Below, one piece after another: positions 22,164 to 36,585 of a DNA stretch of 64,000 nucleotides (position 1 is the stretch's first letter; every line of letters starts with the position of its first letter). The notes beneath the pieces were generated by a model. That model did no database searches. It was not told the origin of the DNA and worked only from the letters and a program-made list of their open reading frames with translations. The position numbers and the translations under genes are program-made. Location: assembly GCF_011045215.1 (NCBI RefSeq), contig NZ_CP049201.1. One strand, written 5' to 3'. Source of the stretch: Escherichia coli (GTDB lineage Bacteria > Pseudomonadota > Gammaproteobacteria > Enterobacterales > Enterobacteriaceae).

Positions 22164-22240
22164 GCGCCCTTAGCTCAGTTGGATAGAGCAACGACCTTCT
22201 AAGTCGTGGGCCGCAGGTTCGAATCCTGCAGGGCGCGCCA
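22164..22240 (+). tRNA. argU: tRNA-Arg (anticodon UCU)
   Basis: 77-nt cloverleaf GCGCCCTTAGCTCAGTTGGATAGAGCAACGACCTTCTAAGTCGTGGGCCGCAGGTTCGAATCCTGCAGGGCGCGCCA; anticodon loop CCTTCTAAG. Confidence 0.95.
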
Positions 22241-23646: not shown

Positions 23647-26262
<2,616 letters not shown>

Positions 26263-27751: not shown

Positions 27752-27816
27752 AATAAGTCCTCACTATATAAAGATATTCAGTGATGAGATAAATAATCAG
27801 TTTATTACGAACGATA

Positions 27817-28179
27817 TTAACGACCTGCTGCGCGGAGTTTTCCGTCAGGTTCACCGGCAAGAGTCAGTAATTGTCCCTGGTCTTCCTGCAGAATAGTCAG
27901 GCGACCACCGCGATTGACATACATCGGCGTTTCGGTGGTGTCTTCTTCGGAAATTTTCCCGCGGTTAGTTGGGCGAACATATGAGAGTTTGTGTTTGATT
28001 TTCACACGGTTCTCATCAAACGGTTCGATTTCCAGATTGAGTGAGACCTTCCCTTTGGTTTTCGTGTTCATCACACCGGAAGCGACCTCACTGAGAACTG
28101 CGCCGATTTTGGTTTCAAATACGCCGCCGTCCAGCTCCCCGATAAATGCCTGCACATCAGTACTGCGTTCGCTAGCCAT
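27817..28179 (-). CDS. phage protein of unknown function, YfdP-like (120 aa)
   Basis: start at MASERS... preceded by AGGAG; the longer ORF upstream looks like non-coding extension. Confidence 0.55.
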   Translation of the reverse strand: MASERSTDVQAFIGELDGGVFETKIGAVLSEVASGVMNTKTKGKVSLNLEIEPFDENRVKIKHKLSYVRPTNRGKISEEDTTETPMYVNRGGRLTILQEDQGQLLTLAGEPDGKLRAAGR

Positions 28180-28199
28180 TTTGCTGCTCCTCATCATAT

Positions 28200-28645
28200 C
28201 GACCCTGCAAGGTCGGTTGGTTTCTCCACAAAACAGAGAAGAACACCTGCGGTGGCAGCCGCCCGGATGGATTGGGTTATGAGCCCGTCGTCCGGTGATG
28301 CTCTTCTCTGTTTTGCAAAAAAGGACGGTACCAGCCGGAAGCAAGGGTACAAACTGGTACCGCCAGGACTACACACAGCATAAAGTTGTGGTGCCGGGTG
28401 CCTCCCGGTGCCTGGCGAAGGTTGCACACCAGGCGGGTGGGTATCCACAGAAGGTCGACTGTCAGCCTCAACCTTAACCCGCGTGCGCTGAGCCGCATTC
28501 ACCACAACGCTAAGGATTCTCTCTGGTTGAAAATACTTAGCTGTTATGTGCCTGCTTTTAGCCACATCAGGCGAGGTGGACCTGGTTATTCCCCAACAAC
28601 AAGGATTCGGTTAATCTGGATATCCCCAACAACAATAAGAGTATT
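28200..28645. other. GC-rich structured non-coding block (candidate phage ncRNA or leader); strand unknown
   Basis: nested inverted repeats, e.g. CAAAACAGAGAAGA 28229-28242 / TCTTCTCTGTTTTG 28302-28315, GGTACCAG/CTGGTACC, CGCCAGG/CCTGGCG, AAGGTTG/CAACCTT; direct repeats CCCCAACAACAA at 28591 and 28624; ORFs here are not protein-like. Confidence 0.3.
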
Positions 28646-28649
28646 CAAT

Positions 28650-29165
28650 GTGATCGCTGAATTAACGGCAGCAATGACGGCTATTCGTGAAACAGCCCAG
28701 ATTGCAAAACTAATGAACGAGGCAAAAACTCAAGCTGAAGTAAATGCGGCTATTGGTGAGCTAAACTCAAAGCTTGCGTCTATTCAGCGCGAATGCGTGT
28801 CTCTCGTTGAACTGGTGGGCTCTTATCAAGAAATAAATGCTTCTCTCAAAGCTAAAATTGCAGAATTCGAAAACTTTGAGGCTCAGACGGAAGGCTATAT
28901 CCTTAACCAACTTGAGTCGGGTACTTTTGTATACTCGAAGGAGGTAATCGTGAACGGTGGCAGCATAACCATGCATCTTTGCCCAAAATGTTTTGGACAA
29001 AAGATAGTATCGATACTTCAACCATTCCCGGTTAGCGAAGATGAGCTTTTTCATAAAAGCAGGTGCCTCCACTGTGAAAATAAGTTTCTGATGAATAAAA
29101 ATCCGGATTACGTATCGCCTCCATCCATTGAGGAGTTGTCCAGAAAACTTAACGGCAATCTGTAG
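28650..29165 (+). CDS. orphan coiled-coil / zinc-ribbon protein (about 165-171 aa), function unknown
   Basis: GTG 28650 (AAGAG upstream) or ATG 28674; coiled-coil-like N-terminal half; CPKC...(18)...CLHC motif; own terminator; between early-left operon and cI. Confidence 0.55.
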   Translation: MIAELTAAMTAIRETAQIAKLMNEAKTQAEVNAAIGELNSKLASIQRECVSLVELVGSYQEINASLKAKIAEFENFEAQTEGYILNQLESGTFVYSKEVIVNGGSITMHLCPKCFGQKIVSILQPFPVSEDELFHKSRCLHCENKFLMNKNPDYVSPPSIEELSRKLNGNL

Positions 29166-29204
29166 ATTACTACTGTTGTGGATATCCAGATTGTTAAAGA
29201 GCTA

Positions 29205-29229
29205 AGCGTCCTGTAGGGCGCTTTTTTGT
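29205..29229 (+). terminator. rho-independent terminator of the zinc-ribbon gene
   Basis: hairpin AGCGTCCTGTAGGGCGCT followed by TTTTTTG. Confidence 0.6.
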
Positions 29230-29393
29230 TGCTAACGAATCATCCTGGACTTCATATGCCCCAGGCGGCTACTTCCTGGGCGTCCTGCCTGTTCGTTTTT
29301 GACATTTACTGACTGCTTACGACACATGCACCGTGTTGCAACCAGATTTTGTTGTAATCCTGTAGTTGGTCTGGAACAAAAGATAAAATTAAA

Positions 29394-29430
29394 TTGCGAG
29401 ATATGCAAGTAATGTTTGCGAAATATGCAA
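29394..29430. promoter_or_regulatory. two 15-bp operator-like palindromes (TTGCGAGATATGCAA, TTGCGAAATATGCAA)
   Basis: same TTGCG-N5-GCAA family as sites between cI and cro. Confidence 0.4.
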
Positions 29431-29440
29431 ATTTATAGGT

Positions 29441-29464
29441 AATAAAAAGCCACCTTTCGGTGGC
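29441..29464 (-). terminator. rho-independent terminator downstream of cI
   Basis: hairpin GCCACCGAAAGGTGGC followed by TTTTTATT on the minus strand. Confidence 0.55.
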
Positions 29465-29484
29465 CGATGGATGGGATATTGAGG

Positions 29485-30177
29485 TTAATTATGTCTCTTA
29501 AGGGTTTGCGACTGACTGATTAAGACCTTTCCAAAGACCATGAATCGGTGTTCGTTTTCGCTAGTAATTCCCCATTCACGGTAAATCTGGTTATCAGAAA
29601 TCACCAGCAGTTTGTCAGGAATCATTTGAAGTCTTTTAACGTATATTTTGTCATCAAAACCAAAGACATATATACCATCACCATCAAACTGATTGATGCT
29701 GACATCAACGAAGATGAGATCTCCTGGCTCAATGGTTGGACACATACTGTCCCCACGAACGTTGATAACTTTGATGTGATTGGCTGGTCGTCCGCCGAAC
29801 ATTGATACAGCATTATCAGTTCTGTATTCGATGGCATGAATCACATCAATGACATCACCGCCCTGGATAAGGCCATTTCCCGCACTGGCACTGATATCCA
29901 GCATTTCAATACGGAACACATCCTTCACCTGCGCAACATCCTCATTATTACTGTTTTTATATACAGTATTACTTTTGTGGGCAGAGGTAAAGAGATCAGC
30001 AATATCAACACCTAAGCTCTTGGCAATATTACTCAGTGTTTGTTCGGTAAATTGTTTTTGCTTACCCGTTTCTAAGCGCGAGATGTTCGCCGCATCTACT
30101 CCTATTGCTTCAGCGAGATCGGCGATTTTCATGTTCTTCGCTTGGCGAAGTTGTCTGACTCGGTTTCCTATGTTCAT
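29485..30177 (-). CDS. phage CI-type repressor (XRE HTH plus S24 LexA-like peptidase domain)
   Basis: 230 aa; N-terminal HTH; C-terminal region with GDSM and a conserved Lys typical of S24 autopeptidases; divergent from cro. Confidence 0.8.
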   Translation of the reverse strand: MNIGNRVRQLRQAKNMKIADLAEAIGVDAANISRLETGKQKQFTEQTLSNIAKSLGVDIADLFTSAHKSNTVYKNSNNEDVAQVKDVFRIEMLDISASAGNGLIQGGDVIDVIHAIEYRTDNAVSMFGGRPANHIKVINVRGDSMCPTIEPGDLIFVDVSINQFDGDGIYVFGFDDKIYVKRLQMIPDKLLVISDNQIYREWGITSENEHRFMVFGKVLISQSQTLKRHN

Positions 30178-30197
30178 GCGTTTATTACATTTCTTTA

Positions 30198-30260
30198 TTG
30201 CGTGATAAGCAAATCAACTTGCGCAAAATAATTGCGTGAAATAACATGCATAACGCGCAA
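30198..30260. promoter_or_regulatory. OR-like operator/promoter region between cI and cro
   Basis: TTGCGTGATAAGCAA (30198-30212), TTGCGCAA, and reverse-complement site ATGCATAACGCGCAA (30246-30260) in the 97-bp divergent intergenic region. Confidence 0.5.
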
Positions 30261-30274
30261 TATTTGGAGGGCAT

Positions 30275-30535
30275 ATGCAATCACCATTACGAAATGTGCG
30301 TAAGGCGCATGGTTTCACTTTGCAGCATGTTGCTGCGGGTGTTCAAGTCAATCCAGCGACGTTGAGTCGTATTGAGAGGCTGGAGCAGATTCCATCTATC
30401 GAGCTTGCAGAACGTTTAGCCAATTTTTTTAAGGGTGAAGTCAGCGAAATGCAGATTCTTTATCCGGCACGTTTTCAATCTAGCCAAAACCAGAATGGGT
30501 TTAAACCACAGGAACAGGAGGTGAACCGTGGGTAA
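30275..30535 (+). CDS. Cro-like HTH regulator
   Basis: 86 aa; HTH GFTLQHVAAGVQVNPATLSRIER; divergent from cI. Confidence 0.7.
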   Translation: MQSPLRNVRKAHGFTLQHVAAGVQVNPATLSRIERLEQIPSIELAERLANFFKGEVSEMQILYPARFQSSQNQNGFKPQEQEVNRG

Positions 30536-31079: not shown

Positions 31080-31434
31080 ACAGTTTAACAACACACTACC
31101 GTCGCTCGCAACTGATTGCGCTTCCTGTACCGGGTGGAAAAGCGAAGGTGGAGTATTGCTATGCAGTAAATGTACCAGGTGACAGGGAAATTGTAACCCA
31201 CAGCTTTGCAGAGTGGGCTGTGGGTGATTTCAACCGGCAGAAGGAGACAGTCCTTTGCGACAAGTTAACCGCTGGTTCAAAGATCACTACGGAGTGCCCG
31301 TCAGAGTCATTCGTTGGGAGCCGGAAACACAACGTGTTATCTACCTCCGCGAAGGCTATGAGCATGAGTGCTTCAGCCCGCTCGAACAGTTTCGTCGTAA
31401 ATTCAGGGAAATAGAGGTCGGTCATGAGCACTAA
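31076..31434 (+). pseudogene. phage gene with apparent frameshift
   Basis: protein-like translation switches between two reading frames near 31230-31260; 3' part ends overlapping the next start. Confidence 0.35.
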
Positions 31435-31787
31435 ATTAACCGGCTATGTATGGGATGGTTGCGCTGCATCAGGCATGAAATTATCCAGCGTGGCAATTAT
31501 GGCCCGCCTGGCTGATTTCAGTAATGACGAAGGTGTGTGCTGGCCATCAATTGAAACCATTGCCCGCCAGATTGGCGCGGGGATGAGTACCGTCAGAACG
31601 GCTATCGCACGGCTGGAAGCAGAAGGCTGGTTAACGCGTAAGGCGCGTCGCCAGGGTACCGTCGTGCCGCAACCGTGTGGATGGCGGCATTCCGTGAAAG
31701 CCACTCCCAGCCAGAACGAAACAATTTTCTGGCGCGTCGTGAGCGGTGCTTACGGAAAAGCAGCAAGCGCGCTGCATCGGGTGAAGA
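31424..31787 (+). pseudogene. replication-associated HTH protein, probable remnant
   Basis: N-terminal ~90 aa resemble phage replication-initiator HTH domains; rest of the ORF to 32089 is low-complexity Gly/Arg-rich and overlaps the next gene in another frame. Confidence 0.3.
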
Positions 31788-32147
31788 GTGGTATCTGTCA
31801 GGGAATTACGTGGGGGCTTAATGACGACGTTAACTCAATGCCAGCAGCAGGTGCTGGATATGCTGATTTCTTACCAGAAAGAACGTGGCTTCCCGCCAAC
31901 CAATCAGGAGGTGGCTACCATGCTGGGATACCGTTCAGTGAATGCAGCGGTGGAGCATCTTCGCGCACTGGAGAAAAAAGGCGTCATCACGATAAAGCGT
32001 GGCGTGGCCCGGGGCATCACGCTTCATACCGCGGTGAAGGACGACGACAGCGAGGTGGCCGGGATTATCCGCGCACTGCTTGCTGGTGAGGAAAACGCCA
32101 GGCTGCGTGCAGCCCACTGGTTACATGAGAGGGGGCTGAAAGTATGA
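31788..32147 (+). CDS. winged-helix DNA-binding protein (LexA N-terminal-like)
   Basis: GTG 31788 or ATG 31821; stop coupled to rusA start. Confidence 0.45.
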   Translation: MVSVRELRGGLMTTLTQCQQQVLDMLISYQKERGFPPTNQEVATMLGYRSVNAAVEHLRALEKKGVITIKRGVARGITLHTAVKDDDSEVAGIIRALLAGEENARLRAAHWLHERGLKV

Positions 32148-32521
32148 AGCTGATTCTGCCTTTTCCACCCAGCGTGAACACCTACTGGCGACACCCCAAC
32201 AAAGGGGCATTTGCTGGTAAGAGCCTGATAAGCGCGGCGGGGCGAAAATTCCAGAGTGCGGCGTGCACAGCAATAGTTGAGCAGTTACGTCGTCTGCCGA
32301 AACCAACGTCGGCACCTGCTTCAGTGGAGATCGTGTTGTTTCCTCCGGATAACCGGATCCGCGATCTGGACAACTATAACAAGGCGCTGTTTGACGCCCT
32401 GACCCACGCGGGTGTGTGGGAAGACGACAGCCAGGTGAAAAGAATGCTGGTGGAGTGGGGACCGGTTATCCCGGAAACGGATGTTGCGGGTTGTTGTTCT
32501 GCGGGTTCTGTTCTTCGTTGA
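32144..32521 (+). CDS. rusA: RusA-family Holliday-junction resolvase
   Basis: 125 aa; conserved RDLDN...ALFDALT...DD motifs; C-terminal tail atypical. Confidence 0.65.
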   Translation: MKLILPFPPSVNTYWRHPNKGAFAGKSLISAAGRKFQSAACTAIVEQLRRLPKPTSAPASVEIVLFPPDNRIRDLDNYNKALFDALTHAGVWEDDSQVKRMLVEWGPVIPETDVAGCCSAGSVLR

Positions 32522-32723
32522 CATGAGGTTGCCCCGTATTCAGTTTCGCTGATTTGTATTGTCTGAAGTTGTTTTTACGTTAAGTTGATGCAGATCAATT
32601 AATACGATACCTGCGTCATAATTGATTATTTGACGTGGTTTGATGGCGTAGATGCACGTTGTGACATGTAGATGATAATTATTATCATTTTGCGGGTCCT
32701 TTCCGGCGATCCGACATGTTACG

Positions 32724-32735
32724 GGGCGGCGACCT
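32724..32735. other. lambda-type cohesive end site cosN, with cosB-like sequence to 32912
   Basis: GGGCGGCGACCT followed by CGCGGGTTTTCGCTATTTATGAAAATTTTCCGG, matching the remembered lambda left end, directly upstream of Nu1. Confidence 0.8.
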
Positions 32736-32912
32736 CGCGGGTTTTCGCTATTTATGAAAATTTTCCGGTTTAAGGCGTTTCCGTTCTTCTTCGTCGTAAC
32801 TTAATGTTTTTATTTAAAATACCCCCTGAAAAGAAAGGAAACGACAGGTGCTGAAAGCGAGCTTTTTGGCCTCTGTCGTTTCCTTTCTCTGTTTTTGGCC
32901 GTGGAATGAACA

Positions 32913-33458
32913 ATGGAAGTCAACAAAAAGCAGCTGGCTGACATTTTCGGTGCGAGTATCCGTACCATTCAGAACTGGCAGGAACAGGGAATGCCCGTTC
33001 TGCGAGGCGGTGGCAAGGGTAATGAGGTGCTTTATGACTCTGCCGCCGTCATAAAATGGTATGCCGAAAGGGATGCTGAAATTGAGAACGAAAAGCTGCG
33101 CCGGGAGGTTGAAGAACTGCGGCAGGCCAGCGAGACAGATCTCCAGCCAGGGACTATTGAGTACGAACGCCATCGACTTACGCGTGCGCAGGCCGACGCA
33201 CAGGAGCTGAAAAATGCCAGAGACTCCGCTGAAGTGGTGGAAACCGCATTCTGTACTTTCGTGCTGTCGCGGATCGCAGGTGAAATTGCCAGTATTCTCG
33301 ACGGGATCCCCCTGTCGGTGCAGCGGCGTTTTCCGGAACTGGAAAACCGACATGTTGATTTCCTGAAACGGGATATCATCAAAGCCATGAACAAAGCAGC
33401 CGCGCTGGATGAACTGATACCGGGGTTGCTGAGTGAATATATCGAACAGTCAGGTTAA
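32913..33458 (+). CDS. nohD: terminase small subunit Nu1 homologue
   Basis: 181 aa, near-identical to remembered lambda Nu1 (MEVNKKQLADIFGASIRTIQNWQEQGMPV...). Confidence 0.9.
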   Translation: MEVNKKQLADIFGASIRTIQNWQEQGMPVLRGGGKGNEVLYDSAAVIKWYAERDAEIENEKLRREVEELRQASETDLQPGTIEYERHRLTRAQADAQELKNARDSAEVVETAFCTFVLSRIAGEIASILDGIPLSVQRRFPELENRHVDFLKRDIIKAMNKAAALDELIPGLLSEYIEQSG

Positions 33459-34324
33459 CAGGCTGCGGCATTTTGTCCGCGCCGGGCTTCGCTCACTGTT
33501 CAGGCCGGAGCCACAGACCGCCGTTGAATGGGCGGATGCCAATTACTATCTCCCAAAAGAATCCGCATACCAGGAAGGGCGCTGGGAAACACTGCCCTTT
33601 CAGAGGGCCATCATGAATGCGATGGGCAGTGACTACATCCGCGAGGTGAATGTGGTGAAGTCTGCCCGTGTTGGTTATTCCAAAATGCTGCTGGGTGTTT
33701 ATGCCTACTTCATAGAGCATAAGCAGCGCAATACCCTTATCTGGTTGCCGACGGATGGTGATGCCGAGAACTTTATGAAAACCCACGTTGAGCCGACTAT
33801 TCGTGATATTCCGTCGCTGCTGGCGCTGGCCCCGTGGTATGGCAAAAAGCACCGGGATAACACGCTCACCATGAAGCGTTTCACCAATGGGCGTGGCTTC
33901 TGGTGCCTGGGCGGTAAAGCGGCAAAAAACTACCGTGAAAAGTCAGTGGATGTGGCGGGTTATGATGAACTTGCTGCCTTTGATGAGGATATTGAACAGG
34001 AAGGCTCTCCGACGTTCCTGGGCGATAAGCGTATTGAAGGCTCGGTCTGGCCAAAGTCCATCCGTGGCTCCACGCCCAAAGTGAGAGGCACCTGCCAGAT
34101 TGAGCGTGCAGCCAGTGAATCCCCGCATTTTATGCGTTTTCATGTTGCCTGCCCGCATTGCGGGGAGGAGCAGTATCTTAAATTTGGCGACAAAGAGACG
34201 CCGTTTGGCCTCAAATGGACGCCGGATGACCCCTCCAGCGTGTTTTATCTCTGCGAGCATAATGCCTGCGTCATCCGCCAGCAGGAGCTGGACTTTACTG
34301 ATGCCCGTTATATCTGCGAAAAGA
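33433..34324 (+). pseudogene. terminase large subunit (lambda A) N-terminal ~297 codons, truncated
   Basis: matches lambda A up to ...YICEKTGIW, then diverges into junk; junction near 34324. Confidence 0.8.
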
Positions 34325-34364
34325 CCGGGATCTGGAGGGGAATACCAACATCGCCGGTGTCACG

Positions 34365-34823
34365 GTGGTGTTCCGGGCAGGTGAACAGGAGCAGACACCG
34401 CCGGAGGGATTTGAATCCTCCGGATCCGAGACGGTGCTGGGTACGGAAGTGAAATACGACACGCCGATCACCCGGACCATCACGTCTGCAAACATCGACC
34501 GTCTGCGCTTTACCTTCGGTGTGCAGGCACTGGTGGAAACCACCTCAAAGGGGGACCGGAATCCATCGGAAGTCCGCCTGCTGGTTCAGATACAACGTAA
34601 CGGTGGCTGGGTGACGGAAAAAGACATCACCATTAAGGGCAAAACCACCTCGCAGTATCTGACCTCGGTGGTGGTGGGTAACCTGCCGCCGCGCCCGTTT
34701 AATATCCGGATGCGCAGGATGACGCCGGACAGCACCACAGACCAGCTGCAGAACAAAACGCTCTGGTCGTCATACACCGAAATCATCGATGTGAAACAGT
34801 GCTACCTTCTGCCCGTAAGGTGA
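34365..34823 (+). pseudogene. internal fragment of tail tip protein J
   Basis: translation ...GTEVKYDTPITRTITSANIDRLRFTFGVQALVETTSKGDRNPSEV... matches the middle of lambda J. Confidence 0.75.
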
Positions 34824-36004
34824 ATGGTAAGGCGCTTTCAGCGGATATAACACTGACGCCGAAAGATATTGGTACGCTTAACTCAACAACAATGTCATTC
34901 AGCGGTGGTGCTGGTTGGTTCAAATTAGCAACGGTAACCATGCCACAGGCGAGTTCTGTTGTTTCAATTACGTTGATTGGTGGAGCTGGATTTAACGTGG
35001 GGTCACCTCAACAGGCAGGTATATCTGAACTTGTTTTGCGTGCAGGTAATGGTAATCCGAAGGGGATTACTGGTGCTTTATGGCAGCGCACATCGACAGG
35101 GTTTACAAATTTTGCCTGGGTCAATACATCTGGTGATACTTACGATATTTACGTTGCAATCGGAAATTATGCGACTGGTGTAAATATTCAATGGGATTAT
35201 ACCAGTAATGCCAGCGTGACGATTCATACGTCACCAGCATATTCTGCTAATAAGCCGGAAGGGTTAACGGACGGTACAGTTTATTCACTCTATACGCCAT
35301 CAGAACAGTTTTATCCGCCTGGCGCACCAATCCCGTGGCCATCAGATACCGTTCCGTCTGGCTATGCCCTGATGCAGGGGCAGACTTTTGACAAATCTGC
35401 CTACCCGAAACTTGCAGTCGCTTATCCGTCAGGCGTGATCCCTGATATGCGTGGCTGGACGATTAAGGGCAAGCCCGCCAGTGGTCGTGCCGTATTGTCT
35501 CAGGAACAGGACGGCATTAAATCGCATACCCACAGCGCCAGCGCATCCAGTACGGATTTGGGTACGAAAACCACATCGTCGTTTGATTACGGAACCAAAT
35601 CCACGAATAACACCGGGGCGCATACCCATAGTATTAGCGGGACTGCAAATAGTGCCGGTGCGCACCAACACAAGAGTTCCGGTGCATTTGGTGGCACGAA
35701 CACGAGCATTTTTCCTAATGGTTATACTGCGATTTCAAATCCAAGCGCGGGGATTATGAGCACAACAAGCGGTACTGGCCAGACTCGTAATGCAGGGAAG
35801 ACATCATCAGATGGTGCTCATACCCACTCACTGTCCGGCACTGCTGCAAGCGCAGGTGCACACGCACATACTGTCGGTATTGGTGCTCATACGCACTCCG
35901 TTGCGATTGGTTCACATGGACACACCATCACCGTTAACGCTGCTGGTAACGCGGAAAACACCGTCAAAAACATCGCATTTAACTATATTGTGAGGCTTGC
36001 ATAA
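34799..36004 (+). CDS. side tail fibre protein, C-terminal portion (Stf-like)
   Basis: 401 aa; Gly/Ser/Thr/His-rich repeats (GAHTHS, GAHQHK, GAHAHT) typical of tail-fibre C-termini; followed by tfa. Confidence 0.6.
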
Positions 36005-36585
36005 TGGCATTCAGAATGAGTGAACAACCACGGACCATAAAAATTTATAATCTGCTGGCCGGAACTAATGAATTTATTGGTGAAGGTGACGCATATATTC
36101 CACCTCATACAGGTCTGCCAGCAAACAGTACCGATATTGCACCGCCAGATATTCCGGCAGGCTTCGTGGCTGTTTTCAACAGTGATGAGGCATCGTGGCA
36201 TCTTGTTGAAGACCATCGGGGTAAAACGGTTTATGACGTGGCTTCCGGCGACGCGTTATTTATTTCTGAACTCGGCTTATTACCGGAAAATGTCACCTGG
36301 TTATCCCCGGAAGGGGAGTTTCAGAAGTGGAACGGCACAGCCTGGGTGAAAGATGCAGAAGCAGAAAAACTGTTCCGGATCCGGGAGGCGGAAGAAACAA
36401 AAAACAACCTGATGCAGGTAGCCAGTGAGCATATTGCGCCACTTCAGGATGCTGTAGATCTGGAAATCGCAACGGAGGAAGAAAACTCGTTGCTGGAAGC
36501 CTGGAAGAAGTATCGGGTGTTGCTGAACCGTGTTGATACATCAACTGCACCTGATATTGAGTGGCCTGTAATACCAGAAGTTTAA
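36004..36585 (+). CDS. tail fibre assembly protein (Tfa)
   Basis: 193 aa; stop/start overlap with stf. Confidence 0.75.
36424..36548. repeat. direct repeat copy 1 (3' end of tfa)
   Basis: about 90 percent identical to 40254-40380. Confidence 0.7.

Follow-up and report, generated by a model that had tools for sequence, protein, structure and literature searches.

The window, a stretch of 64,000 nucleotides of Escherichia coli contig NZ_CP049201.1, contained a decayed prophage remnant of ~14 kb at a tRNA-Arg gene (22164-22240), with the integrase alongside. An IS21-family element (24181-25982, + strand), encoding an IstA transposase of 340 aa and an IstB helper ATPase of 260 aa, had entered the left prophage arm, with the integrase on one side and yfdR on the other. 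The O-like gene was truncated, its match to replication initiators being confined to the first ~79 residues. Within 400 bp after a rusA-like ORF there was an intact small terminase gene of the lambda Nu1 type (32913-33458), followed by part of the large terminase gene, part of a tail-fibre gene and a gene for tail-fibre assembly (remnant region 31424-36585). No head or tail genes were present between the large-terminase fragment and the tail-fibre fragment and assembly gene. Within this remnant cI, its operators and a single gene left of the operators, here called the rip1-like gene, were intact. The gene, its leader, the inverted repeat that encloses it and its terminator are referred to below as the cassette (Table 1).

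Table 1. Features of the immunity region surrounding the rip1-like gene, with positions in the window.
Feature	Position	Strand	Remarks
Conserved non-coding leader	28545..28649	+	Two TCCCCAACAACAA repeats; AAGAG Shine-Dalgarno at 28636-28640
5′ arm of ORF-enclosing inverted repeat	28613..28638	+	26 nt, 85% complementary to 29167-29192
Rip1-family CDS	28650..29165	+	171 aa, GTG start; helices 2-79, beta domain and 4-Cys zinc ribbon 84-150, C-terminal helix 160-168
3′ arm of inverted repeat	29167..29192	+	Starts 2 nt past the stop codon
Intrinsic cassette terminator	29204..29232	+	8-bp stem, then T-run; conserved with the cassette in other contexts
Candidate pL	29380..29408	-	-35 TTGCAT, 17-bp spacer, -10 TATCTT; weak, 7/12 matches in consensus scan
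Putative OL, two 15-bp operator-like repeats	29394..29430		Exact TTGCGN5TGCAA matches
Terminator behind cI	29448..29465	-	Hairpin scan; in the place of tIMM in HK620
cI-type repressor (HTH and S24 peptidase)	29485..30177	-	XRE family regulator WP_001020634.1

The initial annotation had described a stand-alone gene of ~170 aa with its own terminator, opposite in orientation to the leftward operon and to cI, and the locus bore this out. The intact ORF of 171 codons was followed by a hairpin and T-run (29204-29223) and lay on the plus strand, between the yfdP-side operon (27817-28344, - strand) and cI on the minus strand. In RefSeq loci 99.7% identical to the window the same 516-bp coding sequence was called, and its product (WP_000559922.1) was annotated as "hypothetical protein". 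The GTG start and the residues VIAEL that follow it were the same in all close relatives. A longer frame of 259 aa, starting at 28386, was rejected as coding because the leader upstream of the GTG carries 1-nt indels between relatives, yet is highly conserved.

An AF2 model of the window protein, built on 36 homologues, had a mean pLDDT of 88.6. It showed two long N-terminal helices (residues 2-24 and 28-79) that precede a beta domain (84-150), with a short helix (160-168) at the C terminus. Four cysteines, C111/C114 (CPKC) and C139/C142 (CLHC), were invariant in the 36 homologues, and G91, Y95 and L123 were likewise invariant. The coiled-coil-like N-terminal half and C-terminal zinc ribbon read from the sequence by the initial annotation correspond to the long helices of this model and to the four invariant cysteines. 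Within the subfamily the N-terminal helical half fell into distinct allelic types; variability was highest in the zinc-ribbon region and tail at the C terminus. A hydrophobicity scan found no transmembrane-like stretch in the window protein, its maximum mean hydrophobicity over 19 residues being 0.35 compared with 0.53 for Rip1 of HK446. The N-terminal helix was amphipathic and Ala/Thr-rich (muH 0.44).

The protein had been taken for an orphan of no recognisable family, which proved wrong. It matched PHROG 1244 ("unknown function") with an E value of 9.3e-60, a family with thousands of relatives, and at the DNA level its subfamily was present in 737 of 5426 complete E. coli genomes, where it was always annotated as hypothetical. 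After clustering at 50% identity, 3588 representatives of the family matched at E<=1e-3; at E<=1e-10 there were 2094. HK446 Rip1 also matched PHROG 1244 (E 2.2e-53), as did HkaP, JBD30 gp30 (E 2.7e-61) and a homologue in vB_EcoM-689R2. NCBIfam had no family for the window protein, and a Pfam-A search returned weak coiled-coil noise and no family. No PADLOC model was matched (2023 database, older than Rip1), the best hit being a restriction-enzyme model at E 0.063.

The profile and fold search that the initial annotation had proposed gave its answer in the PDB, where both the family profile and the AF2 model matched Rip1 (ring interacting pore 1) of entry 9OOX. The profile of the 36 homologues, searched against PDB sequences, matched 9oox_L (Rip1, 164 aa) over residues 4-151 with an E value of 3e-27, and a single-sequence search with the window protein still matched it (E 2.7e-7). 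An hhalign comparison of the window family with Rip1 gave 99.3% (E 3e-20) over 146 columns. Foldseek matched the AF2 model to 9oox chains M and L with a probability of 1.00 and a target-normalised TM of 0.69; for chain M the rmsd was 3.7 over 120 columns at 28% identity. The remaining Foldseek matches were all noise (E > 0.2). Entry 9OOX, released 2026-02-04, is titled 'HK446 Rip1 in complex with phage T6 small terminase' and holds 12 chains of the Rip1 sequence, to which HK446_037 is 100% identical. PMC12908700 describes Rip1 as a protein of prophage origin that stops incoming phage; by cryo-EM, 12 Rip1 were seen to cap an 11-subunit terminase. A preprint (bioRxiv 10.64898/2026.04.30.721860) names the small terminase subunit as what Rip1 senses. 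The block of incoming phage and the 12:11 complex with the T6 small terminase (TerS) were reported by others for HK446 Rip1 only.

Window protein and HK446 Rip1 shared ~28% identity, or 23-30% in each domain. The homology extended over the full length, the window protein had the Rip1 fold of long N-terminal helices, beta domain and 4-Cys zinc ribbon, and the gene was a single prophage gene placed against the lytic operon in the window, HK446, HK620, JBD30 and four further loci (L005, L006, L009 and L010). The gene is thus a Rip1-family member in its fold, its invariant zinc ligands, its layout and its orientation. We consider it probable that it is a divergent member (~28% identity) of a family of prophage-encoded single-protein anti-phage defences. 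A role of the window gene itself in such defence is supported by its homology to HK446 Rip1. The initial annotation had guessed at a single-gene defence or exclusion function; this guess gained from the full-length homology to HK446 Rip1, and the function stays putative for the window copy. As identity to the sole characterised member is low, trigger specificity may differ.

The closest parallels to the window gene lie in other temperate phages. HK446 Rip1 (HK446_037) shares with the window protein PHROG 1244, the predicted fold and the 4-Cys zinc ribbon; the two proteins are 164-171 aa long, and each is encoded by a single gene that faces against the pL operon of its lambdoid prophage. The N terminus of the window protein is ~10 residues shorter than that of HK446 Rip1 and is without its Gly/Ala-rich, mildly hydrophobic segment. 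HK446 rip1 lies between N and cIII and, unlike the window gene, is without the conserved leader and flanking inverted repeat. HkaP of HK620 (also found in HK629 and HK630), annotated as "putative superinfection exclusion protein", belongs to PHROG 1244 with 28% identity to the window protein, and its gene is on the opposite strand in the pL operon, where it overlaps an annotated terminator. The hkaP gene lies between cIII and hkaQ/N, whereas the window gene is directly beside OL and cI. No experimental characterisation of HkaP was found in the literature. A third group is encoded by Pseudomonas Mu-like phages (the group of JBD30, DMS3 and MP38) with 29% identity to the window protein; JBD30 gp30 and its counterparts in DMS3 and D3112 (orf25), all Casadabanvirus, are PHROG 1244 members (~29% identity) encoded by a lone opposite-strand gene. 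D3112 orf25 was found with the Rip1 query and was 34% identical to Rip1.

The gene had been assigned to a slot equivalent to that of rex, and this assignment has to be revised. In lambda, rexAB is located between OL and cI, on the cI strand. The window gene is downstream of the putative pL and not between cI and OL, and therefore occupies the place equivalent to that of sieB: it lies left of the operators and antisense to the direction of pL, as does lambda sieB (34482-35036, + strand), which is situated to the left of pL, immediately past N, and faces against the pL operon. The same sieB-equivalent place is taken by HK620 hkaP and by HK446 rip1, the latter between N and cIII. SieB of lambda and P22 is also encoded by a prophage exclusion gene. 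SieB is a membrane protein, and the window protein, which has no hydrophobic segment, matches it in position and orientation alone; the SieB family was absent from the PHROG, Pfam and NCBIfam matches of the window protein, a comparison limited to profile matches. RexAB resembles the proposed function of the window gene in being a prophage-expressed abortive-infection function of the immunity region, and RexB acts through membrane depolarisation. RexAB differs in consisting of two genes on the cI strand that are co-transcribed with cI, whereas the window gene stands alone, past OL and on the opposite strand; neither the RexA nor the RexB family was among the matches of the window protein.

The layout to the right of the gene, with cI, a terminator behind cI and operator repeats, mirrors that of HK620. 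The initial annotation had noted operator-like palindromes at 29394-29430, and these were confirmed as two 15-bp repeats, TTGCGAGATATGCAA (29394) and TTGCGAAATATGCAA (29416), that match TTGCGN5TGCAA exactly. One-mismatch copies were found at 30198 and 30246, in the gap between cI and cro. Across the whole window the motif at one mismatch occurred 13 times versus 10.7 expected by chance, which is not above chance, so the operator case rests on the clustering of the motif on either side of cI. The candidate pL overlaps the operator repeat at 29394-29408, and we infer from the consensus scan that it may be the leftward promoter. No recognisable N gene was present between the putative pL and the cassette. 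A basic ORF of 58 aa (29232-29408, - strand) begins within the left operator repeat, and the leftward transcript would reach it before any other ORF. Next to the cassette terminator, on its right, 70 bp (29230-29300) with a CCCAGG...CCTGGG hairpin were conserved in Citrobacter and other prophages.

Orientation against lytic transcription, also remarked on in the initial annotation, recurred in all 8 contexts examined. The gene was on the strand opposite to both neighbours in the window, HK446, HK620, JBD30 and in Salmonella, Rac-like and Citrobacter prophages. In the Salmonella prophage it was flanked by cro and by the rightward operon's replication genes, in the Rac-like E. coli prophage it adjoined dicB, and in the Citrobacter prophage it was found between xis and cI. 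In PhiR49_1 it was opposite to the surrounding genes, and in vB_EcoM-689R2 a small same-strand ORF separated the rip1-like gene from an opposite-strand repressor. The orientation agrees with lytic transcription that would run antisense through a gene expressed in the lysogen.

The window subfamily was carried by O157:H7 strains among others (94% identity), and the window coding sequence was 100% identical to the H126 copy. Four Escherichia phages derived from ECOR strains, PhiR49_1 among them, encoded a protein 99.4% identical to that of the window; PhiR49_1 is inducible. Five records of Klebsiella phages contained a homologue 49% identical. No expression or phenotype data for the window subfamily were found in the literature. 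When two related loci (L084 and L090) were aligned with window positions 27800-29297, the rip1-like coding sequence was seen to be swapped for an allele of 66% nucleotide identity, next to an upstream flank that was 99.5% identical. This swap at a fixed locus points to allelic exchange or diversification. Allele replacement together with a variable zinc-ribbon tail fits the pattern expected of a sensor in an arms race.

If the window protein acts as HK446 Rip1 is described to act, the following mechanism can be proposed by analogy. The prophage remnant, which keeps cI, would express the protein weakly from the leader that belongs to the cassette. In a cell infected by another phage that has reached late gene expression, TerS subunits would form a ring, around which Rip1-like monomers would dock through the beta/zinc-ribbon domain, so that the ring might template an oligomer of ~12 Rip1-like copies. 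The long N-terminal helices would then bundle into a membrane-damaging pore; this step is proposed from the name of the Rip1 protein and a conference summary. The cell would die or depolarise before virions are complete, which would amount to abortive infection. Self-killing by the resident prophage might be avoided in two ways, as the resident lytic pL transcript would run antisense across the gene, and the resident TerS, of the lambda Nu1 type, may escape recognition. For the window copy the identity of the trigger, pore formation, expression in the lysogen and antisense silencing are thus extrapolated from the characterised relative. Compared by description, Avs1-3, Upx and TerI resemble Rip1 in sensing conserved phage DNA-packaging proteins and aborting infection; by the same descriptions Avs1-3 and Upx sense the large terminase, and Rip1 and TerI the small subunit. 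The Avs proteins are described as large STAND NTPases, unlike Rip1.

A protein with the Rip1 fold could also act differently, by recognising a different phage assembly protein that is oligomeric or ring-shaped, for instance the portal or another class of TerS, or by sequestering TerS and blocking packaging with neither pore nor killing. The ~28% identity to HK446 Rip1 leaves room for such a change, as do the missing N-terminal hydrophobic segment of Rip1, the variability of the zinc-ribbon region and tail and the distinct allelic types of the N-terminal helices; the exchange of alleles of 66% nucleotide identity within a flank of 99.5% identity would fit shifting specificity. However, the homology is full-length and includes the helical half, the central and zinc-binding residues are invariant, and the data point to no other target. 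We therefore regard a different mode of action as unlikely, and a Rip1-type defence as the preferred reading.

It is less likely still that the window copy is an inert relic that is no longer expressed or useful. The ~14-kb remnant with its IS21-family insertion, truncated O and fragments of large-terminase and tail-fibre genes would be a suitable setting for such a relic, and no promoter was found in the leader. Against this, every part of the cassette is intact, from leader and inverted repeat to ORF and terminator, and so are cI and the operators; the coding sequence is 100% identical to the H126 copy, and isolated phages encode a protein of 99.4% identity. The intact state of the rip1-like gene, cI and operators in a remnant fits retention for host benefit.

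A housekeeping or regulatory protein of the resident phage, for example a zinc-ribbon transcription factor or an accessory factor of packaging, is very improbable: zinc ribbons are frequent in nucleic-acid-binding proteins, and the Pseudomonas Mu-like homologue is located between the small terminase gene (per the Tab study) and a ~550-aa gene 31, assumed to be the large terminase (the JBD30 record labels both 'hypothetical protein'), but the gene is always opposite in strand to the surrounding lytic operon, is present or absent between otherwise identical prophages where other cargo or nothing substitutes for it, has the defence gene tab in its slot in JBD26, and has a characterised homologue that is described as a defence.

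A function can thus be proposed for a "hypothetical protein" that roughly one in seven of the complete E. coli genomes encodes, O157:H7 included. The Rip1 family, in which one protein has been characterised, is widened to thousands of clusters, and their allelic diversity may mirror a range of phage targets. The gene would also represent a further common prophage-borne resistance determinant, of relevance to phage therapy and to the prediction of phage-host pairs, that is missed by current defence catalogues.

The Rip1-type gene extends a known family, and the cassette around it is more novel than the gene. The leader of ~105 nt was 81-95% identical to that of relatives whose coding sequences were 65-80% identical, and beyond it the sequence further upstream was unrelated (~50% identity) in most such loci. 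Downstream, ~65 nt after the stop codon, terminator included, were conserved across contexts. A consensus scan found no sigma-70 promoter in 28000-30400, and a looser scan found no sigma-70 site in the window-type leader. The L009-type leader has TATAAT where the window has GTTAAT; with TATAAT in this position, the transcription start would fall inside the 5′ arm. No consensus for CRP, LexA, sigma-32, sigma-24 or sigma-54 was seen in the leader by eye. A structured leader RNA was considered and rejected: folded alone, the leader was unstructured, with a fold weaker than that of shuffled sequences (z +1.7), and alifold returned invariant short stems only. Neither the leader nor the 3′ element had an Rfam match at E<=10.

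The 5′ arm stops 12 nt short of the start codon. The two arms covaried, such that a 5′ arm containing GGATGACT, GGATATCTTC, AATCTT or AACGAC was matched by the complement in the 3′ arm. In 40 distinct arm pairs aligned in a fixed register, 80.6% of cells were paired, compared with 24-45% when the partner was slid; the cassette variants were chosen by short anchors within the arms and their sequences are related. Two-sided changes were found in 21 cells versus 7.9 +/- 2.5 in shuffles, none of 500 of which reached 21, and 10 of 20 pairs had a double change (reached in 1 of 500 shuffles). The predicted fold of the window transcript (28600-29232) contained the ORF-enclosing helix in both MFE and centroid structures, followed by the terminator hairpin (z -3.4), and the helix was predicted in 39 of 40 cassette variants of 500-890 nt. 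An antisense lytic transcript could form the same helix. The possibility that the inverted repeats are terminal repeats of a mobile element was rejected, because conservation extends ~70 nt to the left of the 5′ arm and through the terminator.

Prophages that share this immunity type differed in the contents of the slot from yfdP to cI, which were a rip1-like gene, an ECs1072-family gene with a small convergent ORF, a 91-aa minus-strand ORF, or nothing annotated. In the ECs1072 locus, homology to the window ran up to 28633 and resumed at 29186. Both breakpoints are inside the repeat arms, and the same leader and terminator therefore carry a different ORF. At least 120 stretches of viral contigs had the leader motif. 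Among the matches listed, the ORF behind the leader belonged to the ECs1072 family in at least 42 and was rip1-like in at least 40. The rarer cargo, again among the matches listed, consisted of ORFs of 78 aa, 98 aa (ECs1072-related) and 167 aa, a 171-aa ORF with a signal peptide, a 157-aa membrane protein and one tail-fibre-like ORF, the last of which is probably a rearrangement. Besides the rip1-like ORF there were at least 7 cargo families, making at least 8 in all. None of the non-Rip1 cargo families tested had a match in PADLOC, and NCBIfam contained ECs1072 only. The cassette was rejected as a feature of the whole Rip1 family, because the rip1 loci of HK446 and HK620 lack the leader and the inverted repeat.

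The combination of leader, inverted repeat and terminator is well supported as a portable cassette pattern. Such a cassette may consist of the ~105-nt leader, which is better conserved than any of the cargos, covarying repeats that close the ORF into a stem of ~15-23 bp, and a shared terminator. We suggest tentatively, and as somewhat doubtful, that the rip1-like ORF is one interchangeable cargo of a hitherto undescribed portable 'moron expression cassette' of enterobacterial temperate phages. By analogy the stem could be a processing site of the RNase III type, or a helix that circularises the mRNA and gates translation. Stems around rRNA precursors and lambda sib are parallels of the RNase III type. 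If this proposal is true, the stem would couple expression of the cargo to the lysogenic or lytic state, and the ECs1072 family and at least 6 other cargos would be new candidates for a role in defence or exclusion. With its shared leader and stem and its swappable cargo, the cassette would provide a sequence handle for finding further lysogen-expressed phage genes.

In E. coli LST200A the slot corresponding to window positions 28650-29190 (L095, 1149-1776) encoded a 144-aa ECs1072-family protein, with a convergent, overlapping ORF of 68-73 aa on the other strand. This two-gene arrangement might represent a toxin-antitoxin-like or defence pair. Directly to the left of the cassette leader, upstream of yfdP, the window contained a full-length match to the STnc100 sRNA of Rfam (28315-28538, - strand), which was below threshold (40.3 bits versus a gathering score of 47, E 5e-7). 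A very weak Rfam match to DicF was found at 28323-28377 on the same strand.
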